In this document: positions 2,704 through 42,674 of the stretch, in pieces
How positions within the stretch are numbered: position 1 is the first letter of the stretch
Layout: each line of letters begins with the position of its first letter
Assembly: GCA_963765675.1 (NCBI GenBank)
Contig: CAVXXK010000001.1
Span: 320,001 to 384,000, forward strand
Length of the DNA stretch: 64,000 nucleotides
Direction of reading: 5' to 3'
Source of the DNA: an uncultured delta proteobacterium
GTDB lineage: Bacteria; Desulfobacterota; Binatia; Binatales; Binataceae
Program-made: the position numbers and the translations under genes
Notes under the pieces: generated by a model
What the model saw: only the letters and a program-made list of their open reading frames with translations
What the model was told of the DNA's origin: nothing
The model's database searches: none

Positions 2704-3639
2704 TCAAATCCCCTCGGCCTGGAACAGATCGGTCGTCAGGTAGCGCTCGCCGGTGTCGCAGAAGACCACCACCACGATCTTGCCGGGGCCGAGCCGCTTT
2801 GCGATTTTTAGCGCCGCGCAGCAGTTGGCGCCCGACGAGATCCCGACCAGGATTCCCTCTTCGCGCGCGAGACGGCGCGTGTAGAGCGTCGCGTCTTCGT
2901 CGCTGACGGTGATTATCTCGTCATAGGATTTGGTGTCGAGATTTTTCGGAATGAAGCCCGCGCCGATTCCCTGGATCTTGTGAAAGCCCGGTTCTCCGCC
3001 CGACAGCACCGGAGAATTTTTCGGCTCGACCGCGACCACCAGCACCTTGTTCTGGCAATGCTCGTGCAGGTAGCGGCCCGTGCCCGTGATCGTGCCACCG
3101 GTGCCGACGCCCGAGATGAACGCGTCGATGCGCGGCATCTGCTCGACGAGCTCAGGACCGGTCGTGTGATAGTGGATATCAGGATTGGCCGGATTACTGA
3201 ACTGCTGCGGCATGAAGTAGCCGGGATTGTCCCTGGCAAGTTCTTCGGCCTTCGCGATCGCGCCGTGCATCCCGCGAGTGTCGGGAGTCAGCACCAGCTT
3301 GGCGCCGTACGCGGCCAAGAGCGAGCGGCGCTCCTCGCTCATCGTGTCGGGCATCGTGAGAATCAGCTTGTAGCCCTTGACCGCCGCGACCAGCGCCAAT
3401 CCGATACCGGTGTTGCCGGAAGTAGGCTCGACGATCGTGTCGCCGGGCTTGATGCGGCCGGATTTCTCCGCCGCTTCGATCATCGCAAGGCAGATGCGAT
3501 CCTTGACGCTGCCGCCCGGATTGTAGTTCTCGAGCTTGGCCCAGATTTCGGCTTCATCCTTGCCGGGCAGGCGATTTAGGCGGACGACCGGCGTATGGCC
3601 GATAAGATCAAGTGGCGAATGTGCGACGCTCACGGGCAT
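2704..3639 (-). CDS. cysK: Cysteine synthase A
   Basis: NPGGSVKDR (PLP Lys), [22 protein letters not shown]; start taken at ATG 3639. Confidence 0.95.
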
Positions 3640-3811: not shown

Positions 3812-4745
3812 ATGGGTGGACGCGTGTTGATCATCTTTCCCGGGGCGCTTGGCGACCTGATTTGCCTCGGGCCGGCGATTCGCGCGCTCGGGCGGATGAA
3901 TCCGGGCGCGGCGGTCGAGCTGATGGCGCGTGGGGAGTTGGCGGAGTTCGCGGCCGGACGCCTCGGCGTCGTGGCGGGGCATTCGATCGATCGGCGCGAG
4001 ATGAGCGCGATGTTTCGCGAGGACGGCGCGAGCGATCCGGTCGCGCGGAAATTCTTCGGGCAGTTCGATAAGATCTATTCGTTCTTTGCGTTTGACGATC
4101 CGGTCTATCGCCGCAACCTCAGCCTCGCATCCGGCGGCACTGTAGCGTTTCATCAGTTTCGGCCCGAACGGCGAGGGACATATCGCGGAGCTTTATTTGA
4201 AATCGATCGGAGCCGGGAACGAACCAATCGAATCGCGAATCGATCTGACGCTGGAGGATCACGAAGCCGCTGCTCAAGTGATCGGGAGACTCAACCTGAT
4301 TCCCGATGAGTTCGTGATGCTCTTTCCCGGCAGCGGCAGCGAAAAGAAAAACTGGCCGGAGAAAAACTTCGCGCGGCTGGCGCTCGAAATCGAGGACCTG
4401 ATGCGGATACGTCCGCTCACGGTGCTCGGGCCGGCGGAAGAGGATCTGGGGCCGGTGTTCCACGACTTCGGAATCCCGACGGTTTCGATGCTGTCGCTGG
4501 CGACCGTCGCGTCGCTCGCGGGCTTCGCCGCTGGCTTTGTCGGCAACGATTCTGGAGTCTCGCATTTGGCGGCGGCGGCAGGAGCGTTGGGCGTCGTGAT
4601 CTTCGGGCCGACCGATCCAGCGCGATGGCGTCCGCTCGGACGCGTTACCGTCCTGCCCTCGCCGGAACTCAAAGAGCTTCAGGTCACGACCGTCACAAAT
4701 GCACTTCAAGCCGCGTGCGCGGGTCCGCCGCGATGCTTACATTGA
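3812..4745 (+). CDS. Glycosyltransferase family 9 (ADP-heptose:LPS heptosyltransferase-like), +1 frameshift near 4163-4165
   Basis: PGALGDL at the N-terminus; FPGSG..KNWP, VGNDSGVSHLAAA and IFGPTDPARW in the second frame; removing one C joins the two ORFs. Confidence 0.85.
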
Positions 4746-4880
4746 CTGTGAAAATGGCGTGGCGTAGCTTCAAGATGCGCTTTCGTGCGGATAATTCACC
4801 CATGTTTTTCCTATCTCTTCCGCGCTTGGAATCACCGGGCACCTTGATGACGTGCGTTCGCGAGTCCGCCTGAAATCCAC

Positions 4881-5744
4881 ATGAGAAGCTTTCTCAAAAC
4901 CACCTTTCTGCTCGGCGCGATGACCGGGCTGCTGATGCTGATCGGCGGACTTATCGGAGGACGCGGCGGAGTCGTCATCGCGTTCGTGTTCGCCGCTATA
5001 CTTAACTTCGCGAGTTACTGGTTCTCGGATCGGATGGTGCTCGCGGCGTACCACGCGCAACCGCTGGACGCGACCAGTGCGCCCGAGCTGTACTCGATCG
5101 TCAACGAGCTGGCGCATTCGGCGGGTATCCCGATGCCGCGCCTGTTCATGATCGATGATGACACGCCCAACGCGTTTGCGACCGGACGAAATCCGACGCA
5201 TGCGGCGGTCGCGGTCACGCGCGGAATCATGCGCATCTGCGATCGCGAGGAGCTGAAGGGAGTGATCGGGCACGAGCTCTCGCACGTGATCAACCGCGAC
5301 ATCCTGACCAGCTCGATCGCGGCGACGCTCGCCGGCGCGATCATGATGCTGGCGTACGGAGCGCGATGGGGTGCGCTGCTCGGAGGGTTCGGCGGACGCG
5401 ACGACGACGAGCGCGGCGGAATTATCGGATTGCTCGCGATAAGCATCCTCGCGCCGTTCGCGGCCACGATGATCCAGCTTGCGATCTCGCGCACGCGCGA
5501 GTACCAGGCCGACAAGAGCGGTGCCGAGCTTACGCACAATCCGCTCTTGCTCGCGAGCGCGCTGCGCAAGCTCGAGAACGCCAACGAACGGATGCCGCTC
5601 GAATCCGCGGGACCGGCGACCGCGCATCTGTTTATCGTCAACCCTCTCAGCGCTGGGGGAGTCACGCGCCTGTTTTCAACTCATCCTCCGATCGAGGAAC
5701 GGATCCGGCGGCTCGAGAACATGGCGGCCGGACGCTCCGACTAG
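4881..5744 (+). CDS. htpX: Zinc metalloprotease HtpX
   Basis: PNAFATGRNP, HELSH, SRTREYQAD, FSTHPPIEERI. Confidence 0.95.
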   Translation: MRSFLKTTFLLGAMTGLLMLIGGLIGGRGGVVIAFVFAAILNFASYWFSDRMVLAAYHAQPLDATSAPELYSIVNELAHSAGIPMPRLFMIDDDTPNAFATGRNPTHAAVAVTRGIMRICDREELKGVIGHELSHVINRDILTSSIAATLAGAIMMLAYGARWGALLGGFGGRDDDERGGIIGLLAISILAPFAATMIQLAISRTREYQADKSGAELTHNPLLLASALRKLENANERMPLESAGPATAHLFIVNPLSAGGVTRLFSTHPPIEERIRRLENMAAGRSD

Positions 5745-20021: not shown

Positions 20022-21560
20022 ATGACGCAGCGAATCCATATCACCACGGCGATCCACTACAGCAACGGACCGCCGCATCTCGGCCACGCTTACGAGGATA
20101 TTGCCGCCGACGCCTACGCGCGCCATCTGCGGCGCAAAATCGGCGGCGCAAACCTGACCTTCGTCACCGGCACCGACGAGCACGGGCAGAAAAACCGCGA
20201 CGCCGCGGCGAAGGTCAACCTCGATCCAAAAGCGTTCGCGGATAAAATCAGCGCGCTGTTCCGGACCACCTTCGATCGGCTCGAAATCAGCTACACCAAT
20301 TTTGTCCGCACCACCGATCCGGTGCACGAGGCGTTCGTGCAGAAGATGCTCGCGCGAACCTACGAGCGTGGCGATATCTACTTCCGCGATTACGAGGGTC
20401 TCTACTGCGTCGGATGCGAGCGCTTCTACACCGAGAAGGAGTTGCTACCGGGAAATATCTGCCCGGAACATAACACGCCGGTCGAGCTCCTCAAGGAATC
20501 GAATTATTTTCTCAAGCTCGAAAAATATCGCGAGGCGATCCGCGCGCATATCAAGGCCAACCCCGGCTTCATCCGTCCTGAGCGCTACCGCAACGAAGCG
20601 CTCAGGATGTTCGATGAGCCCCTCGCTGATCTGTGCATCTCGCGCCCGAAGGCGCGCCTGGATTGGGGAATCGAGCTGCCGTTCGATCCCACCTACGTCA
20701 CCTATGTCTGGTACGACGCGTTCTGGGCGTATCTGAGCGAGCTGCCCGACACGAGCGATGCCGCGCTGGCGGCGCTGCTGCCCGCGACCGAGCACTTCAT
20801 CGGCAAGGACATCCTGAAGACTCATGCGGTGTACTGGCCCGCGATGCTGCTGGCGGTCGGGCTGCCGCTCTACGCGCGCCTCAACGTTCACGGGTTCCTC
20901 AACCTTGAAGGCTCGCGGATGTCGAAAAGCTCGGGCAACATGATCGATCCGCTCGAACTCGCCGAACGGCTCGGCCCTGACGTGTTGCGCCATTTCGTCT
21001 TGCGCGAGTTCGTATACGGACTCGACGGAGACTTCACCGAGGAGCGGCTCACCGAGCGCTACAACGCCGACCTCGCCAACGACCTCGGCAATCTCACCAG
21101 CCGCGTGCTCGCGATGGCGGCGCGATATTTCGGCGGCGAGCTCACGATGGCCCCAGGAGCGAACGCTGAGGATCGTGCGCTGTGCGATTCGTTCGCCACG
21201 GTCGCCGCGCGGAGCGCCGCTCAGATCGAAGAGCTTGCATTCAATCGAGCGCTCGAAGCGATCTGGCAATCGCTCGACGCCGCGAACAAATACATCGTCG
21301 CGACTTCTCCGTTCAGGCTCGCAAAGGATCCCGCGAAGCTGCCGCGTGTCGCGGAGATTCTGGCGAACTTGTGCGAGGGCCTGCGCGTCGTCGCCGACAC
21401 GCTCGAGCCGTTCATGCCGGCGACCTCGCGGAAAATCCTCGATCTCCTGAACGTCGATGACTCAACAGCGCACGCGCCGTTCGGCGAGGGCTTGAGGCCG
21501 GGGCATCGTGTGAAGGCGGCGACTCCTCTGTTTCCGCGAATCGAAAAAAAGAAAGCCTAG
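20022..21560 (+). CDS. metG: Methionine--tRNA ligase (short form)
   Basis: PHLGH, GTDEHG, CVGC..CPEH knuckle, RMSKS, YNADLANDLGNL. Confidence 0.95.
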   Translation: MTQRIHITTAIHYSNGPPHLGHAYEDIAADAYARHLRRKIGGANLTFVTGTDEHGQKNRDAAAKVNLDPKAFADKISALFRTTFDRLEISYTNFVRTTDPVHEAFVQKMLARTYERGDIYFRDYEGLYCVGCERFYTEKELLPGNICPEHNTPVELLKESNYFLKLEKYREAIRAHIKANPGFIRPERYRNEALRMFDEPLADLCISRPKARLDWGIELPFDPTYVTYVWYDAFWAYLSELPDTSDAALAALLPATEHFIGKDILKTHAVYWPAMLLAVGLPLYARLNVHGFLNLEGSRMSKSSGNMIDPLELAERLGPDVLRHFVLREFVYGLDGDFTEERLTERYNADLANDLGNLTSRVLAMAARYFGGELTMAPGANAEDRALCDSFATVAARSAAQIEELAFNRALEAIWQSLDAANKYIVATSPFRLAKDPAKLPRVAEILANLCEGLRVVADTLEPFMPATSRKILDLLNVDDSTAHAPFGEGLRPGHRVKAATPLFPRIEKKKA

Positions 21561-21572
21561 CGCGGGGCTCCG

Positions 21573-22367
21573 ATGATGACGCCGATCATCGACACGCATT
21601 GCCATCTGGCCGATCCCAAACTCGACCAGGATCTCGAGGCCGTTCTCGAACGCGCCCGCATCGCAGGAATCGCGCGGATCGTTTCAGTCGGCGCGATCGG
21701 ATCTGTCGAATGCGATCGCCGCACGGTCGAAATCGCGGAGCGCCACGAACATATTTTCGCCGCGATCGGAGTGCATCCGCACGACGCGAAAGATTGCACT
21801 CCCGCGCGGATCGCGCAGTTGCGCGAGCTCGCGCGATCGCCGCGGGTGGTCGCGATCGGCGAGAGCGGCCTGGATTTTCACTACATGCACTCGCCTGCCG
21901 AGGCTCAGGAAGCGGCGCTGCGGCGTCATCTGAAACTCGCTTCCGAGCTTGGAAAACCAATCGTTATCCACTGCCGCGACGCCGAGGATCGGCTCGCCGC
22001 GATCGTGCGCGAAACCGCGATCCCGCGGGCCGGCGGCGTGATTCATTGTTTCACCGGCAACGCCGCCGCCGCCGCGCGATTTCTCGAGCTCGGATTTCAT
22101 ATTTCGTTCTCGGGAATCGTGACGTTCAAGAATGCCGCCGCGGTGCGCGAAGCCGCGCGCATCGTTCCGGACGATCGCGTGATGGTCGAAACCGACGCGC
22201 CCTACCTCGCGCCCGAACCGTATCGCGGCAAACGCAACGAGCCCGCCTTCGTCCGCCGCACGCTCGAGGTGCTCGCGGAAGTGCGCGGCGCCGACGTTGA
22301 CACTCTCGCGGAGCTGACCGCCACCAACGCAACCCGCCTCTTCCGATTAACGGCGGCGGCGAAGTAG
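21573..22367 (+). CDS. tatD: TatD family DNase
   Basis: DTHCHL, GVHPH, IGESGLD, IHCR, HCF, ETDAPY. Confidence 0.95.
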   Translation: MMTPIIDTHCHLADPKLDQDLEAVLERARIAGIARIVSVGAIGSVECDRRTVEIAERHEHIFAAIGVHPHDAKDCTPARIAQLRELARSPRVVAIGESGLDFHYMHSPAEAQEAALRRHLKLASELGKPIVIHCRDAEDRLAAIVRETAIPRAGGVIHCFTGNAAAAARFLELGFHISFSGIVTFKNAAAVREAARIVPDDRVMVETDAPYLAPEPYRGKRNEPAFVRRTLEVLAEVRGADVDTLAELTATNATRLFRLTAAAK

Positions 22368-22422
22368 TGCCAGGTCGAGGTCATGCAGGGGCTCGGACAA
22401 CTTAGGCGCCGAGACCTCAGTC

Positions 22423-22527
22423 GTCATTTCGACCTAAGGGAGAAATCCCGAGCGAAGGACCACCGCATGTGGCGTTGGTTCCGGAGCATGGACGCCTCGG
22501 GATTTCTCGCCCAAGGCTCGAAATGAC
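22423..22527. repeat. GTCATTTCGA..GAGAAATCCC / GGGATTTCTC..TCGAAATGAC palindromic element
   Basis: Nested inverted arms read directly; same class as the elements at 24273-24416 and 24648-24808. Confidence 0.8.
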
Positions 22528-22591
22528 GATCGGTCTTTTGTCAATTTGCGCCGATTCACGGAATCGCTTCTGCGGGGTTATAGATACTGAG

Positions 22592-23104
22592 ATGCCCACG
22601 CTGGAAAAGCTCTCCCTTCCGCCGCCGTTCGAGGACGCGATGAAATCGCTCGAGAGCGAGATCATGCGCTTCATCCTGCGCAGCACGCGTGACCGCGAGG
22701 ACAGCCTGGACCTGTTTCAGGAGACGTGGCTGCGCGCATACCGCGCGTATCCGTCCCTGCGCTCGCACAATGGGCTGCGGCCGTGGGTATTCAGTATCGC
22801 GGCCAATCTGTGCCGCAATCGCGCGCGCGATCGGATGCGCCGGGCGCGCGTGATCGTGAACGACGGCCGCGACCCGGACGCGGAGGCCGAACGGTTCTTT
22901 CCGCACGCCGAGAGTTCTCCCGACGGCGTGATCGGACTTCGCCGCGCGCTCGCTGCGCTTCCGGGCAAGCAGGGCAAAGCGCTGATGATGCGCAAGTTCG
23001 GCGGGATGGAATACGCGGAAATCGCGACGGCGCTCAAATGTTCCCAGGAGAGCGCGCGGGCCAGCGTGTACCAGGCGCTCAAGAAGTTGAAGGCATCGCA
23101 ATGA
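22592..23104 (+). CDS. ECF-type RNA polymerase sigma factor
   Basis: Sigma2 (DLFQETWLRAY..WVFSIAANLCRN) and sigma4 (LPGKQ..YAEIATAL..RASVYQALKKL); about 170 aa. Confidence 0.92.
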   Translation: MPTLEKLSLPPPFEDAMKSLESEIMRFILRSTRDREDSLDLFQETWLRAYRAYPSLRSHNGLRPWVFSIAANLCRNRARDRMRRARVIVNDGRDPDAEAERFFPHAESSPDGVIGLRRALAALPGKQGKALMMRKFGGMEYAEIATALKCSQESARASVYQALKKLKASQ

Positions 23105-23922
23105 AAACCACCAATCAGAACAAGCAGATGGAAGCATCGAAAGAATTTGACGATCGCGACGTCGAGGCGCTGGTGCGCGCCGCGCATCCGGGAATCCGCC
23201 GCGCGATGAAGATTCTGCGGCGTCCCGAGGCGCGGATCGGAATCGTTGCGTCGCCGGTCGGACAACTGCTGGTGGCCGAGGGTCCGCACGGTTTTGCGAC
23301 GATCCATTTTCTCTCGTCCAGCGACGCCGAGCGTCCGCTTGAAAAGCTGCGGCGTAAATTCGATCTGCTCGAGAATGAAACCTGGCGCGCGGATACCGTC
23401 CGCGAGCTCGGGCGATATTTCGGCGGCGACTTCTCGGTGCTCGCTCACGAGGTCGATCTGGTGATGGTCGAAAGCGAGTTTCAGCGCCGCGCGCTGATGC
23501 GGCTGCGCGAGGTTCCGATCGGCTCGGTGATCACCTACCAGGGATTGGCCACGGCGGTTGGAGAGCCCGACGCGCAGCGCGCGATCGGCAACACGATGGC
23601 GTCGAATCCGATCCCGATCTTCATCCCGTGCCATCGCGTAATTCGCTCCGACGGAACCATCGGGAATTACGGCGGCGGGGTCAAGAACAAGATCACGCTG
23701 TTGCGCAACGAAGGATTCGCGCTCGGCCCGAGTGCGCGGATGCCGTCGAACCTCAGGATGCCGGCGTCGGCGGTGATGGGGCATCGGCATACGCATATCT
23801 ACTGCCGGCCGGATTGCAGCGCGGCGAAGCGCGCCGACCCGCGCCGCTCATTGATCTTCGCCGACGCCCGCCACGCGCGCGCCGCAGGCCTGCGCGCCTG
23901 CAAGCTATGCAAGCCCGGCTGA
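23101..23922 (+). CDS. Methylated-DNA--protein-cysteine methyltransferase (Ogt) fused to a C-terminal Ada zinc-binding domain
   Basis: FQRR, TYQGLA, RAIG, NPIPIFIPCHRV; C-terminal IYCRPDC..AGLRACKLCKP. Confidence 0.92.
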   Translation: MKTTNQNKQMEASKEFDDRDVEALVRAAHPGIRRAMKILRRPEARIGIVASPVGQLLVAEGPHGFATIHFLSSSDAERPLEKLRRKFDLLENETWRADTVRELGRYFGGDFSVLAHEVDLVMVESEFQRRALMRLREVPIGSVITYQGLATAVGEPDAQRAIGNTMASNPIPIFIPCHRVIRSDGTIGNYGGGVKNKITLLRNEGFALGPSARMPSNLRMPASAVMGHRHTHIYCRPDCSAAKRADPRRSLIFADARHARAAGLRACKLCKPG

Positions 23923-24237
23923 GTTGGGATTGAGCAGCACGCATCGCTCGACCAGCCGGCCAATCAGCCATCAACCGCCTATGGCAGAAGGAAACAATCT
24001 GCCAGTGGTGGCGGACGGCTCGTCCGCCTCTCCCCGCGAGAAGAGCCCATCGATAGTCGGCGAAGCGCGATCAGAAATGACCGGTGACGCCGATCCTCCT
24101 AAGAAACAGGATTGAGGATTCGTGGCACAGGCTTCAGCCTGTGCTGCTCACCCCGGGCACAGAGCAGAATCAATTCATAGAGGCGCATCGCGACGCGCCC
24201 GTCTTCGCAGTCCTCTGCCGGATACCCTCTCCCTCCG

Positions 24238-24447
24238 GATGATGTCGATTTTCTCGCGAATGCCCCCAGGATGTCATCCTGAGCCGTAGGCGAAGGATCT
24301 CCGCGAAGCGATTAGTGCAACTCTTCTGGGCGATTCGCACTAATCGCTTCGCGGAGATCCTTCACAGAGCCCGTCCTGAGCAACGCCGAAAGGGGGCAGC
24401 CTTCGTTCAGGATGACGGACAAGAATTCGGCATTTATCGAGAGCCTC
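24238..24447. mobile_element. MITE-like insertion 1 in a REP hairpin loop
   Basis: Splits CCCTCTCCC-tcc-GGGAGAGGG; CTCCG duplicated at 24233-24237 and 24448-24452; imperfect ends GATGATGTCGAT / ATCGAGAGCCTC. Confidence 0.6.
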
Positions 24448-24591
24448 CTCCGGGAGAGGGCAACGCGGCGCGGCGATTGCTTTTTTTTGCAATCGCCGTA
24501 ACGCGTGGGTGAGGGTGCTGCTCTGCTCATTTAATCGCGCGGCATGCGCGCCGCGCTGAAAAATGACCCTCACCTAACCTCTCCCTTTCAG

Positions 24592-24854
24592 GAGAGCTTT
24601 GCGTAATCGATTCCATTGAACGGGTCATGCGGCTGGCGAGATTCCTCGCGATGCGCGCAGCGCGAGCCGATCTGCACGCCGCAAAGCTGGCGCTGGATTC
24701 GCGCTCGGAATGACAACGTTTGCTGGTTTTGTGTCATTCCGAGCCCGTACAGGCGATGCGGATGGTGAGGTGCAGAGTACCGAATGGCAGCAATTGCGAG
24801 GAATCTCGCCCTGCGCACTGGGCACACTTTTCCGGTAGGTTATGCAAAGCTCTC
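24592..24854. mobile_element. MITE-like insertion 2 in a REP hairpin loop
   Basis: 15-bp TIR GAGAGCTTTGCGTAA / TTATGCAAAGCTCTC (1 mismatch); CCTTTCAG duplicated at 24584-24591 and 24855-24862; an uninterrupted site occurs at ~35214-35232. Confidence 0.75.
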
Positions 24855-24874
24855 CCTTTCAGGGCGAGGAATCA

Positions 24875-24911
24875 GAAAAGAAGAAAGACGCCGCTAGGGG
24901 CGGCGTCTTTC
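24875..24911 (-). terminator. Intrinsic terminator of the glycine-zipper lipoprotein cluster
   Basis: GAAAGACGCCGC-loop-GCGGCGTCTTTC stem followed on the minus strand by a T-rich tract. Confidence 0.75.
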
Positions 24912-24941
24912 GTGCGAATCTGAAATGTTAACCGAGATGAT

Positions 24942-25292
24942 CTATTCGGTTTCGTTCTGCTGTTGAAGTTGCTGCAACTGCTGGCGCTGCTGTTCGATTT
25001 CCTGCTGTTGCTGCTGCACTTGCTGACTGGTCTGGGCGTTGGCGTTCTCGTTGTTCTGCATCGAGTTGCCGACCGCATAGCCGGTCACTCCACCAAGTCC
25101 GCCACCGATAAGAGCGCCGGCTGCCGGATGTCCGACCGCTGCCCCTACCAGTGCGCCGCCGACGGCGCCGATTCCCGCACCGCCCAGCGTCCCTTCTTCT
25201 CGAGTCGAGAGCGGCTGGCTGCCAGCGCATCCTGCAATGAACAGCGCCGCTGCGAGCGTGATTCCTGCGATAAGGCCCGAGCGCGACCGCAT
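24942..25292 (-). CDS. Glycine-zipper lipoprotein with Gln-rich tail (copy 3)
   Basis: AAGGAGG RBS, lipobox IAGC, GAxxG repeats, polyQ coiled coil. Confidence 0.85.
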   Translation of the reverse strand: MRSRSGLIAGITLAAALFIAGCAGSQPLSTREEGTLGGAGIGAVGGALVGAAVGHPAAGALIGGGLGGVTGYAVGNSMQNNENANAQTSQQVQQQQQEIEQQRQQLQQLQQQNETE

Positions 25293-25330
25293 GATGGCCT
25301 CCTTGCCTACCCTTTACCTCGTAGGCCTGG

Positions 25331-25678
25331 TTATTCCGTTTCCTGTGATTGTTTCAACTGCTGGAGCTGCTCGCGTTGCTGCTCGATCTCCTGCTGCTGA
25401 GATTGAATTTGCGTTTCGGTCTGTGCGTTGGCGTTTTGCTGATTCTGCATCGAGTTGCCGACGGCGTAGCCGGTCACTCCGCCAAGTCCGCCGCCGATCA
25501 GAGCACCTGCAGCCGGATGCCCGACCGCAGCCCCGACCAGCGCGCCGCCGGCGGCGCCGATTCCCGCGCCGCCCAAGGTACCTTCTTCACGAGTGGAAAG
25601 CGGGTCACCGGAGCATCCCGCCACCAGAAAAAGAACAGCCAACGCGAGGGTTCCTGTCACAATTGCTGGCTTGCGCAT
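25331..25678 (-). CDS. Glycine-zipper lipoprotein with Gln-rich tail (copy 2)
   Basis: GGGAG RBS, lipobox VAGC, paralog of the flanking ORFs. Confidence 0.85.
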   Translation of the reverse strand: MRKPAIVTGTLALAVLFLVAGCSGDPLSTREEGTLGGAGIGAAGGALVGAAVGHPAAGALIGGGLGGVTGYAVGNSMQNQQNANAQTETQIQSQQQEIEQQREQLQQLKQSQETE

Positions 25679-25714
25679 GATCGATCTCCCTGACTGATTA
25701 GACTCGGCAGGGAG

Positions 25715-26068
25715 CTATTCCGTTTCATTCTGTTGCTTGAGCTGTTGAATTTGTTGGCGCTGCTGTTCGAGCTGCTGCTGCTGCGACTGAATCTGGGATT
25801 GCGTCTGCGCGTTGGCATTCTCCTGATTCTGCATCGAGTTTCCGACCGCAAACCCGGTCACGCCTCCAAGCGCGCCGCCGATTGCCGCGCCGGCGCCGGG
25901 AGCTCCCACCGCCGCACCGATAATCGCGCCGGTCGCCGCGCCAAGGCCTCCGCCAATCAGGGTGCCTTTTTCACGGGTTGAGAGTGGCTGTCCACTGCAC
26001 CCGGTCATTACTCCGAGCGCAATTGCCATTAGAATCACGGTTAAGGTTTTAGTTGCGAATTGCAGCAC
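25715..26068 (-). CDS. Glycine-zipper lipoprotein with Gln-rich tail (copy 1)
   Basis: GGAGGAG RBS, GTG start, lipobox MTGC. Confidence 0.85.
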   Translation of the reverse strand: MLQFATKTLTVILMAIALGVMTGCSGQPLSTREKGTLIGGGLGAATGAIIGAAVGAPGAGAAIGGALGGVTGFAVGNSMQNQENANAQTQSQIQSQQQQLEQQRQQIQQLKQQNETE

Positions 26069-26243
26069 GGCCCTCCTCCATCATTAGCCGGGTAGTTTCG
26101 ACGCCGCTTTGCCCAGCTCGAACTGCAAACCCCGGGTGGCAGAACCCGAAGTTTCGTATCTTATCGAGGCACGATCAAGCAAGCCGACCACTTTCCTGAA
26201 CAATAATTAAGCATGATTGGAATCGTGCATCCATCGGAGCGCT

Positions 26244-26960
26244 TCACGGCAGGACGGCGAAGCATCGCGTCGGCCCTCCCGTGCCCTTGCCGATCTTCAT
26301 CGGAATACAGAAAATCGTCGCACCCTTAGGGGGCAATTTATCCGCATTGGCAAGGTTCTCGAACCCCGGCTTGCCGGCTCCGAGCCACGCGCGATGCACC
26401 GGGTAGTCCTTCGAGATGCCGGGGTCCATGCTTGCCGTATCAATCGCGATCGCGGCGACATTGCGGTTCTTGAGCATCCAGTTGACGGCCTCGGCCGAGA
26501 AGCCGGGAAAGCGCAGCCCGGCCACGTCGCCCGGTTTGTCGGTGCCCATGTAGGCTTTCGTGTCGGGCCAATATTTGCCCCATCCGGAACGCGCAACGAC
26601 GATCGCGCCGTCGGGAATACGGCCGTAGGTGGTTTCGTAACGCTCGAGGTCTGCGACGCTCAACGTCGCGTTGCGATCTTTCGCCGCGCGATCAGAAAAA
26701 TCTACGACCGCCGCGGGACCGACGCAGCTCGCGAGCGGCACCTGGTCGAGCGTCAGGCCATCGCGGCTATAGTGAATCGGCGCGTCGGCGTGGGTTCCGA
26801 AATGTTCGGGCGCGGCATAAGTGGCCGCCGAGTAGAAATAATTTTCGGACGTCCCGTTCTGAGCTTCGAACTTATGCTCGAAACGCCCCTCGCCCGGCCA
26901 ACCGATAGTCGTGCTGTCGAAGGTGTAGGTCAGGTCGATAATCTTTGCGGAATCTATCAA
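26244..26960 (-). CDS. Cyclase family metal hydrolase (kynurenine formamidase-like)
   Basis: IIDLT, EHFGTHADAPIH, ENL, G.GGPTR. Confidence 0.9.
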   Translation of the reverse strand: MIDSAKIIDLTYTFDSTTIGWPGEGRFEHKFEAQNGTSENYFYSAATYAAPEHFGTHADAPIHYSRDGLTLDQVPLASCVGPAAVVDFSDRAAKDRNATLSVADLERYETTYGRIPDGAIVVARSGWGKYWPDTKAYMGTDKPGDVAGLRFPGFSAEAVNWMLKNRNVAAIAIDTASMDPGISKDYPVHRAWLGAGKPGFENLANADKLPPKGATIFCIPMKIGKGTGGPTRCFAVLP

Positions 26961-31321: not shown

Positions 31322-31990
31322 ATGCCGTATTCAACCGTACCATATGCGCGCGCCGCGCGGATGCATCTCGCGCGCGTCGATCCGGTGATGGCGGCGATTA
31401 TCGCCAAGGTCGGCGCGTGCCAGATCGTGCAGCGCCGCGAGCGCTTTCGGGCGCTCGCCCGCGCGATCATTTTTCAACAACTCGCCGGAGCCGCCGCCAC
31501 CGCGATCTACGGCCGGGTGGTTGGACTCTATCCGGGCCGCGCGTTTCCGCATCCTACCCAGATTCTCGCCACTCCCGACGCGATTCTGCGCAAGGCTGGA
31601 CTCTCGGCCAAGAAGGCGCTCTACATCAAGGACCTCGCGACGCACGTCGAAAAAAAGATTCTCAACTTTCATCGCTTCGCGCGCATGACCGATGAGGAAG
31701 TCATCGCCGACCTGACGCGCGTAAAAGGGATCGGGCGATGGACCGCCGAGATGTTCCTGATGTTCAATCTCGCGCGCCCCGATGTTCTGCCTGTAGACGA
31801 CCTGGGCGTGCGCAACGCCGTCGGACGCGCGTACTCGATGCGCAAGCCGCCGACGCCGAAAGAGTTGCGCGTCTTCGGACAGCGATGGAGCCCCTACCGG
31901 ACCGCGGCCGCATGGTACCTGTGGAAAAGCCTCGAGATCAAAACGCCCGGCACTGTGGATAGAAAGCCCGCGCCGCGCCAGCACCGCTAG
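31322..31990 (+). CDS. alkA: DNA-3-methyladenine glycosylase II (AlkA-type HhH-GPD)
   Basis: IIFQQL, GLSAKKA, VKGIGRWTAEM, LPVDDLG, WSPYRT. Confidence 0.88.
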   Translation: MPYSTVPYARAARMHLARVDPVMAAIIAKVGACQIVQRRERFRALARAIIFQQLAGAAATAIYGRVVGLYPGRAFPHPTQILATPDAILRKAGLSAKKALYIKDLATHVEKKILNFHRFARMTDEEVIADLTRVKGIGRWTAEMFLMFNLARPDVLPVDDLGVRNAVGRAYSMRKPPTPKELRVFGQRWSPYRTAAAWYLWKSLEIKTPGTVDRKPAPRQHR

Positions 31991-41666: not shown

Positions 41667-42674
41667 ATGAACCAGGCAAGATATATCTCGCTATGGCTGA
41701 TGCTCATGTTGGCTGCGTTGATCTTTGCCAACGCTGGATGCGGCAGCGGATCGTCGTCGTCCGCGCCGTCGCCCTTAGCCAATCGGCGCTTCAAAACAGG
41801 CGGAATTTATCCAGAGGGAATCGGGATTGACGCCACCGACCACGTCTGGATCGCGAACCGATACAGCAACAATGTCGTCGAACTGAGCAGCGACGGCGAG
41901 ATCCTGAACACCGTAGCAGTCGGCGCTCGCCCGCACGGACTCAAAATCGATCGCGGCAACACCGAGAACATCTGGGTGCAGAATACCGCGAGCAACGATG
42001 TCACCGCGCTCACGCCGGACGGATCGGTGATCGGAACCTTCTCAACCGGGGGCACCGAACCGCAGCATGCCCAATTCGATCCCGGCGGAAATATCTGGGT
42101 GACCAACCAGGGTAGCAACACGGTCGCCGAGCTCGACGCGTCCGGCGCGATCGTCCAGCAGGTGAACGTCGGTCAGAACCCGCACGCAATCGCTCGCGAC
42201 TCGGACGGCAATTTCTGGATTGGCAACTACTCGAGCGGCAATATCACCGTGCTCGACGCGAGCGGAGGCGTCGTCACGACGATCGACGGAGTTGGTTATC
42301 AGCCGAGCGGCAACGCTATCGATCTGGACCAAAACCTGTGGCAATCCGTTCAAAGTGTCAACCAGGTGGTGCAGTTCGCCGCTGCGCCCGGGTTCAATCA
42401 GATTGCCAATCCGCCGGTCGGCATCGCCCCGCGCGGAGTTACGATCGACAACGTGGGCGACGTGTTTGTCGCCAATCAGCGAACCAACGATGTGTACAAG
42501 CTCGATAAGTCGGGCAGCCTGCTGGCGCGTTACAGAGTCGGCGCTTGTCCTGAAAACATGGCGATCGATTCCAAGGGCAATCTCTGGGTTACGGACGCGT
42601 GCGACAATACCGTTACGCGGCTGAGGCGGGTCGCCGTGCCGATCCCGTCCGGCGACGGCGACTCCAACGGCTGA
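41667..42674 (+). CDS. Lipoprotein with NHL/Vgb-like beta-propeller repeats
   Basis: Lipobox NAGC, Ser linker, about seven P.GI.ID..GN.WV.N repeats. Confidence 0.8.
   Translation: MNQARYISLWLMLMLAALIFANAGCGSGSSSSAPSPLANRRFKTGGIYPEGIGIDATDHVWIANRYSNNVVELSSDGEILNTVAVGARPHGLKIDRGNTENIWVQNTASNDVTALTPDGSVIGTFSTGGTEPQHAQFDPGGNIWVTNQGSNTVAELDASGAIVQQVNVGQNPHAIARDSDGNFWIGNYSSGNITVLDASGGVVTTIDGVGYQPSGNAIDLDQNLWQSVQSVNQVVQFAAAPGFNQIANPPVGIAPRGVTIDNVGDVFVANQRTNDVYKLDKSGSLLARYRVGACPENMAIDSKGNLWVTDACDNTVTRLRRVAVPIPSGDGDSNG

Follow-up and report, generated by a model that had tools for sequence, protein, structure and literature searches.

An ECF sigma factor coupled to an Ogt-AdaZn repair protein: a candidate alkylation-damage switch outside the Actinobacteria

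A 64,000-nt stretch of DNA from an uncultured Binataceae bacterium (contig CAVXXK010000001.1; hereafter the window) contains an operon of 2 genes, in which a gene for a sigma factor of the extracytoplasmic function (ECF) type overlaps a gene for a DNA repair protein. This repair protein, Ogt-AdaZn, consists of an O6-alkylguanine-DNA alkyltransferase (Ogt) followed by an Ada-type zinc domain. The 2 genes form a conserved, translationally coupled unit, beyond chance adjacency, and the pairing is kept across 4 phylum-level lineages. Judging from its sequence, the pair probably forms a self-inducing switch that responds to alkylation damage. To our knowledge, the adaptive response to alkylation, in which a repair protein serves as its own damage sensor, is known only in its Ada/AraC form. 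The association of a sigma factor with an O6-methylguanine methyltransferase is in itself already catalogued; what is new here is its presence in another phylum, with the pairing extending well outside the Actinobacteria.

A conserved pair of sigma factor and methyltransferase

The sigma factor gene (22592..23104, plus strand) encodes a protein of 170 aa. Pfam detected Sigma70_r2 at residues 20-83 (E 9.7e-13) and Sigma70_r4_2 at residues 116-166 (E 5.1e-12), and the NCBIfam model for ECF sigma factors, TIGR02937 (sigma70-ECF), matched with an E-value of 8.3e-21 (score 74 bits, cutoff 42.9). With the sigma-2 and sigma-4 domains only, and neither region 1.1 nor region 3, the protein has the composition of an ECF (group IV) sigma-70 factor. 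The best 120 of its 1086 relatives are 64-98% identical to it. Two of its cysteines are conserved: C74, within the sequence NLCRNR, is near-invariant, and C150, within the region 4 helix-turn-helix (HTH), is invariant.

The repair gene (23101-23922, plus strand) encodes 273 aa and comprises 3 parts, all on the plus strand. An N-terminal extension (residues 1-42; 23101..23226), delimited by an AlphaFold model and by conservation, precedes a complete Ogt, whose N-domain (residues 43-115) and C-domain (residues 126-205) were assigned by Pfam and fold matches (23227..23715). The C-terminal Ada-type zinc domain (residues 221-272; 23761..23916) was identified by Pfam, phmmer, and Foldseek alike. Of the Pfam families, DNA_binding_1 (PF01035) matched residues 126-205 with an E-value of 2.9e-28 and Ada_Zn_binding (PF02805) residues 221-272 with an E-value of 2.2e-11, while the match to Methyltransf_1N (PF02870) was weak (residues 47-109, E 2.3e-4). 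The zinc domain is truncated on its N-terminal side, covering positions 14-64 of the 65 in the profile.

The residues expected for methyl transfer are all in place. The PCHRV active site spans residues 176-180 (23626-23640), with the acceptor Cys177 encoded at 23629-23631, and the zinc-domain cysteines lie in the motifs CRPDC (C235 and C239, the C235 codon being 23803-23805) and CKLC (C267 and C270). All 5 cysteines are invariant among 71 relatives, and among these sequences the Ogt residues Y146, R160, N169, C177, H178, and E204 are invariant as well. By its PCHRV motif and its conserved Tyr, Arg, Asn, and Glu, the repair protein is a complete O6-alkylguanine-DNA alkyltransferase, and is predicted to carry out stoichiometric methyl transfer from O6-methylguanine. 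A phmmer search aligned residues 224-272 to residues 27-74 of the N-Ada structure 1adn (E 3.9e-5), which places C235, C239, C267, and C270 on the 4 zinc ligands. We take these ligands to be Cys38, Cys42, Cys69, and Cys72 in Ada numbering, so that C235 would presumably be the equivalent of the methyl acceptor Cys38.

An AlphaFold model built from the 71 relatives (pLDDT 82) begins with a disordered stretch (residues 1-14) and a single helix (18-39). The Ogt fold follows, and then a zinc domain that stands apart, joined to the Ogt by a linker modeled with low confidence. The helix bears the conserved motif I-x-R-A-M-K-x-L-R-R-P. Foldseek matched the model to the Ogt/alkylguanine-DNA alkyltransferase (AGT) structure 1sfe (E 4.7e-11, target TM-score 0.76) and to 4zyg (target TM-score 0.82), as well as to 1yfh and 4wxc, confirming the two-domain AGT fold. 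The zinc domain superimposed on N-Ada 1u8b with a root-mean-square deviation of 1.3 A over 51 columns. No HTH family was found in the repair protein at E <= 0.1 (Pfam), nor did the sigma factor or the repair protein match any HTH or anti-sigma family in Pfam or NCBIfam. Among relatives of the repair protein, the best 120 are 244-273 aa long and 58-94% identical, and all carry both PF01035 and PF02805; those named among them come from Candidatus Binataceae/Binatus and from metagenome-assembled genomes (MAGs) of Acidoferrales. Elsewhere in the 64-kb window, no other sigma factor, Ogt, or Ada was found.

The stop codon of the sigma gene and the start codon of the repair gene share the sequence ATGA (23101..23104, plus strand), an overlap indicative of translational coupling. 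An earlier, sequence-only reading of this DNA had described an ECF sigma gene overlapping an Ogt-Ada(Zn) fusion in this manner, and all its structural details were confirmed by the sequence, Pfam, and the AlphaFold model. It had named a lack of conservation as one thing that would refute it, and the pair proved to be conserved. The pair was surveyed in one scan of representative genomes, which yielded 80 loci, followed by local hidden Markov models (HMMs) built from both families. The sigma gene lies directly upstream of the repair gene, on the same strand, in all 19 loci of the close family for which upstream DNA is present (L007 has none). It is also found upstream in 15 more distant loci of Chloroflexota and Actinomycetota, bringing the total to 34 of the 80. 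The distant loci comprise 3 from Chloroflexota (L021, L024, and L051), 4 that encode an Ogt with a C-terminal AdaZn domain (L022, L026, L027, and L045), and 8 from Actinomycetota that encode an Ogt alone. At the junction between sigma stop and repair start, 18 of the 34 linked loci have a 4-nt overlap; in another 11 the genes are 0-12 nt apart, and in 5 the distance is larger. The nearest relatives of the window pair are found in MAGs of Candidatus Binataceae and Acidobacteriota, with Binatus and Acidiferrales among the names.

Linkage to a sigma factor also separated the domain architectures. Every locus encoding an Ogt with a C-terminal AdaZn domain was sigma-linked (23/23), against none of the 16 encoding a canonical Ada, composed of AdaZn, an AraC-type HTH, and Ogt. 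The full AdaZn and AraC-type HTH were confirmed in all 15 canonical Ada proteins checked (L030 was dropped for a coordinate error). The sigma factor thus occurs where the HTH is missing, a pattern that fits a sigma factor standing in for the AraC output. In a maximum-likelihood tree of 35 sigma factors, 4 partner architectures were each confined to one side of a branch, and the sigma factors of Chloroflexota formed the sister of the window family (support 93/93). Sequence identity across these lineages is low: the window sigma is 38% identical to the one from Chloroflexia, and 31% and 30% identical to the actinobacterial examples at L063 and L027, respectively.

Upstream of the operon lies a promoter-like motif, TTCACGGAATCGCTTCTGCGGGGTTATA (22555..22582, plus strand), with a -35-like TTCAC and a -10-like GGGGTTATA. 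The motif TTCAC-N13-GGGGTTATA ends 10 nt before the sigma ATG and matched once in the 64 kb, where 0.03 matches were expected. With a regular expression it was recovered in 15 of the 19 close loci, in each case upstream of the operon; of the remainder, 3 carry a CTCAC variant and L001 a variant -10. The spacing between the motif and the sigma ATG was 10-11 nt in 11 loci, and in the window the interval from motif to ATG (22555-22591) leaves no room for a Shine-Dalgarno sequence. So short a distance implies a leaderless or nearly leaderless mRNA, and the operon is probably expressed in this way. The position and conservation of the motif suggest that it is the sigma factor's own autoregulated promoter. 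The -35 element, (T/C)TCAC, resembles the CTCAC found upstream of the mycobacterial sigma genes (TCTCAC-N17-CGTCT in L058, L063, and L067), and the -10 element of the window motif resembles the GTGTTGTAG that precedes sigma genes of Nonomuraea.

Proposed negative control by the repair protein, and alternatives

Based on these features, we propose that the operon is a self-contained, two-gene alkylation-response module, in which Ogt-AdaZn would be both the output and the negative regulator of the sigma factor, and methylation would set the sigma factor free. We put this forward tentatively, at a little under an even chance. With TTCAC-N13-GGGGTTATA as the promoter, the ECF sigma factor would transcribe the leaderless operon to which it belongs, and Ogt-AdaZn would be co-translated with it as a suicide methyltransferase that has to be resynthesized after use. 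In the resting state, unmethylated Ogt-AdaZn would hold the sigma factor, probably by its N-terminal helix. O6-methylguanine would pass its methyl group irreversibly to Cys177, methyl-phosphotriesters would pass theirs to the zinc-bound Cys235, and either event or both would then alter or destabilize Ogt-AdaZn, such that the sigma factor is freed and the operon induced. Fresh, unmethylated Ogt-AdaZn would in turn restore repression, and replacement of the suicide enzyme would keep pace with its consumption. Ada of E. coli uses methyl-phosphotriesters, in themselves harmless, as a signal; an Ada zinc domain that lacks a DNA-reading output is therefore best explained as a sensor.

The strongest argument for negative control comes from the sister clade. 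The Ogt partners of the sigma factors in Chloroflexota carry an N-terminal match to zf-HC2, which scores below threshold (16.6-20.3 bits against a cutoff of 22.2) but in which the HxxxCxxC motif is visible. Within this ZAS-Ogt family (ZAS, zinc anti-sigma), the C, H, C, and C residues of the pattern C..HxxxCxxC are invariant in all 54 members. PF13490 is a precomputed annotation on 21 of the best 120 relatives, including proteins named from Sphaerobacter and Thermomicrobiaceae. A sequence search of the PDB with the ZAS domain gave two anti-sigma factors as its top matches, RsiW (E 0.0045) and RslA (E 0.0065), and a model of a ZAS-Ogt protein placed 4 helices ahead of the Ogt. When this model was compared with the PDB by Foldseek, it returned Ogt structures alone, without the small helical domain surfacing. 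Taken together, the zf-HC2 match, the invariant residues, and the matches to RsiW and RslA indicate that the Ogt of the sister clade is physically fused to an anti-sigma domain. The sequence-only reading had placed the repair protein in the position of an anti-sigma factor and had proposed a survey of whether homologs carry an N-terminal zf-HC2 domain. Given a true zinc anti-sigma domain on the Ogt, that placement holds literally in Chloroflexota, but neither such a domain nor any other detectable anti-sigma domain is present in the window protein.

A second argument is the N-terminal extension itself. An extension ahead of the first strand was present in all 20 aligned sigma-linked Ogts and in none of 6 unlinked ones. 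Sigma-linked proteins have 98-197 aa before the Ogt C-domain (at least 105 in 33 of 34), whereas in unlinked plain Ogts the upper bound for this region was 98 aa or less in 25 of 29. Residues 1-42 of the window protein are a candidate sigma-binding element, through which the 2 proteins would bind one another. In complex predictions, the sigma factor and Ogt-AdaZn scored 0.63, 0.64, and 0.67, but one control with an unrelated partner reached 0.56, and the scores speak neither for nor against binding. As the sequence-only reading had stated, there is neither an AraC-type HTH nor an anti-sigma gene: no such family matched either protein, and the operon of the window contains no candidate for an anti-sigma factor other than the repair protein.

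Several observations weigh against negative control by this route. No anti-sigma family (zf-HC2 or RskA) was detected by Pfam in the window's repair protein, and its extension is a single helix, far below the size of a class I anti-sigma domain. The 4 helices and HxxxCxxC motif that characterize class I or ZAS domains are found in the sister clade and are lacking in the window protein. Comparison of residues 1-42 with the ZAS region of the sister family by hhalign gave a probability of 0.7%, no better than reversed controls, and at full length the 2 families aligned from residue 38 onward only. The promoter evidence has its weaknesses, too. To the eye, it could also pass for a weak promoter of the sigma-70 type (TTCACG, a spacer of 17-18 nt, and TATAGA), which weakens the case for autoregulation. 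Strict patterns gave no second copy of the motif in the 64-kb window, and a search of 600 kb of related loci gave only the operon sites and one weak match in L076; no regulon is therefore visible beyond the operon in the DNA that was searched. Finally, 7 of the 19 close loci contain a conserved open reading frame (ORF) of 60-74 aa downstream of the promoter motif and ahead of the sigma gene, which could encode a small, membrane-anchored protein that is the true regulator in those loci.

The N-terminal helix was also considered as a homolog of anti-sigma domains, and was rejected as such for its lack of profile similarity to the ZAS region in hhalign. In a MAFFT alignment the helix falls opposite helix 4 of the ZAS domain, a correspondence of position only. 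Look-alikes of residues 1-46 in the ESM Atlas were N-terminal fragments of Ogts only, with a best score of 0.85, below a meaningful level.

In a bolder form of our proposal, the repair protein would be a consumable anti-sigma factor. Each irreversible methyl transfer, whether to the Ogt cysteine or to the Ada zinc-thiolate, would spend one inhibitor and free one sigma factor, so that damage would be counted by the number of spent proteins and precisely the spent enzyme would be made anew from the leaderless, autoregulated operon. One zinc-thiolate sensor would have been swapped for another across phyla. The sensor would be an N-terminal ZAS domain in Chloroflexota, a C-terminal Ada domain in Binatota-like bacteria and some Actinomycetota, and the Ogt alone in ECF122-type systems. 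We regard this generalization as possible, yet on the whole doubtful.

The most serious alternative is that the repair protein is mere cargo of the operon, the sigma factor being controlled in some other way (by transcription, by an unlinked factor, or by the small membrane ORF), while the helix and zinc domain serve repair, for instance by adding DNA affinity or removing phosphotriesters. The absence of anti-sigma homology from the window protein is as expected under this explanation, and so is the small ORF. The latter begins with MIPTIQ and encodes a transmembrane helix at the C-terminus, and an AGGAG ribosome-binding site lies ahead of it; it is located at 3295-3477 in L002 and at the same position in L004, L005, L006, L008, L009, and L010. 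It has no match in Pfam or NCBIfam, and could also be a third component of the module, such as a membrane-anchored regulator. In addition, the ECF literature treats the groups with such a methyltransferase (ECF122 and ECF203) as lacking an anti-sigma factor, and suggests other regulators, such as TetR for ECF203. On the other hand, the fusions of an anti-sigma domain to Ogt in the sister clade, the strict association of the extension with the sigma factor, the 4-nt coupling across phyla, and the strict complementarity with HTH-containing Ada speak against mere cargo. Moreover, the operon of the window contains neither the small ORF nor any other regulator. On balance, we consider this explanation unlikely.

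Less probable still is positive control, in which methylated Ogt-AdaZn would activate the sigma factor or its holoenzyme, for example through a zinc domain that gains affinity for DNA and recruits sigma-RNA polymerase. This has a precedent in E. coli, where Ada becomes an activator once the cysteine at its zinc site is methylated, and methylated Ada contacts RNA polymerase. The retention of the zinc domain with all 4 cysteines and the replacement of the HTH by a sigma factor in the distribution of domains would be in keeping with such a role. However, the 8 actinobacterial and 3 Chloroflexota loci without an Ada zinc domain keep the coupling between sigma and Ogt, such that a mechanism common to all cannot lie in the zinc domain, and the domain found in the sister clade has a known role in inhibiting sigma factors. 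We therefore think it quite improbable.

Least probable of all, and very improbable in our view, is that the motif is a housekeeping (sigma-70-type) promoter and that the ECF sigma factor has an unrelated regulon elsewhere, its adjacency to Ogt reflecting shared expression only: the likeness read by eye and the want of a second copy in the DNA searched speak for it, but the invariant GGGG just ahead of TTATA and the TCAC -35, which ECF122-type promoters also have, are not features of sigma-70 promoters, a consensus scan called no sigma-70 promoter at the motif, and the pairing is kept over 4 phylum-level lineages.

If the repair protein does act as an anti-sigma factor, it would represent a new sensing principle for ECF sigma factors, in which covalent methylation uses up the inhibitor. 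The adaptive response would then have a second, sigma-based solution, ECF groups now listed as "unknown" would gain a mechanism, and the pair would offer a compact, orthogonal switch inducible by alkylation. Three leads can be tested directly: the fusion of an anti-sigma domain to Ogt in the sister clade, the N-terminal extensions on sigma-linked Ogts, and the mutual exclusivity of the C-terminal AdaZn and the AraC-type HTH with regard to sigma linkage.

Surrounding DNA and accompanying genes

Upstream of the operon, the window contains metG and tatD (20022-22367). The order metG-tatD-(NnrU, on the opposite strand)-sigma-ogt was observed among the 19 close loci, in L001, L002, L006, L011, and others; the NnrU gene is absent from the window. 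This synteny is kept in Binataceae-like genomes, which argues for vertical inheritance on the chromosome rather than a mobile island. Among the neighbors of the 19 close loci, no further repair gene was found.

The sequence-only reading had the pair flanked only by repeats. This is accurate for the downstream side, where roughly 1 kb of non-coding DNA (23923-24940) is dense in inverted repeats, such as one with 32-nt arms at 24292-24363. It does not hold for the upstream side, which contains metG-tatD and the promoter motif besides an inverted repeat. The latter, located between tatD and the operon promoter (22421..22529), has 23-nt arms and the core GTCATTTCGA. By its sequence it is an element resembling repetitive extragenic palindromes or miniature inverted-repeat transposable elements (REP/MITE-like), and it may terminate the tatD transcript as well. 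Its core occurs again at 24703-24744, and 3 more times in the window with one mismatch. With the core written as GTCATT(T/C)CGA(G/C)C, the window has 7 matches where 1.74 would be expected, and such repeats lie on both sides of the operon. An Rfam scan of 21500-26500 gave no match.

Beyond the repeats, the minus strand carries 3 tandem, paralogous genes for small lipoprotein-like proteins (24942-25292, 25331-25678, and 25715-26068), each of which combines a glycine-zipper domain with a coiled tail rich in glutamine. In L001, too, a glycine-zipper gene lies downstream of the pair.

An ORF at 31322-31990 encodes an HhH-GPD protein with a weak match to AlkA (38.8 bits against a cutoff of 229). 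It had been suggested as a possible member of the regulon, but the promoter motif is absent upstream of it, which leaves the suggestion unsupported. A relaxed pattern, TCAC-N16-GGTTA, matched twice in the window against 0.33 expected, one match being the operon promoter. The other, a weak match at 42274-42298, may well be due to chance.

The actinobacterial loci have different surroundings. In 6 of 8, an extra alkylation-repair gene lies within 2.2 kb, which counts in favor of an alkylation-response module; its product is either another Ogt, of the plain kind, or an oxygenase of family PF09859. These genes are located at 2822-3334 (minus strand) in L058, 1822-2334 (minus) in L080, 2595-3251 (plus) in L023, 2041-2874 (minus) in L063, 2462-3175 (minus) in L067, and 4477-5220 (plus) in L065. 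In the ECF122-like loci, the second Ogt is 170-218 aa long and has no N-terminal extension, and the gene for PF09859 ("Oxygenase-NA"), in Pfam's description an oxygenase whose substrate is damaged DNA, is often divergent from the promoter region of the sigma gene. These accompanying genes are likely members of the regulon.

Comparison with known systems

The sequence-only reading had seen in the pair a different logic for the adaptive response, but its novelty was overstated, as 2 catalogued groups of ECF sigma factors have an O6-methylguanine methyltransferase at position +1. According to its entry in the supplement of Casas-Pastor 2021, ECF122 is 100% actinobacterial, with an O6-methylguanine DNA methyltransferase at +1, no anti-sigma factor, and a promoter predicted to have CTCAC as its -35 and CGTCTAC as its -10 element. 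The entry for ECF203 describes a group from Actinobacteria with the methyltransferase at +1 and a context of TetR, MFS, and Ada_Zn_binding, and TetR is suggested as an alternative regulator (Casas-Pastor 2021). A 2022 review (PMC8999054) lists this association as a possible uncharacterized regulator with an "unknown mechanism". A full-text literature search found no characterized Ogt-type anti-sigma factor, ECF-driven alkylation response, or experimental study of such a pair, nor any mention of ZAS-Ogt fusions; its coverage was incomplete, and relevant papers may exist outside it.

As far as these entries go, the window pair shares with ECF122 the methyltransferase at +1 and the lack of a recognized anti-sigma factor. 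The promoters agree in part: the -35 elements are similar (CTCAC versus (T/C)TCAC), and the -10 elements differ (CGTCTAC versus GGGGTTATA). With ECF203 it has in common the O6-methylguanine methyltransferase and Ada_Zn_binding, whereas neither TetR nor MFS, which are listed for that group, was found among the neighbors in the window or around the 19 close loci. Published accounts place both groups entirely in Actinobacteria, while the nearest relatives of the window pair belong to Candidatus Binataceae and Acidobacteriota MAGs. Because of these non-actinobacterial relatives, the identity of only 30-31%, the different -10, and the absence of TetR, we filed the pair under neither group; it is set apart from both by the published descriptions and by pairwise identity, rather than by group HMMs.

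The ZAS anti-sigma factors (of the RsiW, RslA, and RsrA type) are encoded directly after their ECF sigma factor and are translationally coupled to it, as is the repair protein of the window. Their domains are zinc-thiolate sensors as well. The window protein differs in having no ZAS domain: in its place stands a single helix, and a different zinc-thiolate domain is found at the opposite end. With stand-alone Ogt and human AGT, the protein shares the full two-domain fold and the catalytic residues. Proteins of the window type differ from stand-alone Ogt by an added helix at the N-terminus and a zinc domain at the C-terminus, and in the sample examined they are always coupled to a sigma factor.

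The closest functional parallel is Ada of E. coli, a suicide repair protein that reports damage, and we propose the same logic for the window protein. Both contain the same 2 methyl-acceptor modules, a zinc domain with 4 cysteines and an Ogt domain with PCHRV. In Ada, however, the zinc domain is N-terminal and an AraC-type HTH lies between it and the Ogt domain. In the window protein the zinc domain stands at the C-terminus, without the first ~13 positions of the profile, and there is no HTH; on both counts, the protein is not an Ada. The transcriptional output, which in E. coli resides within Ada itself, would in this system be a separate sigma factor.

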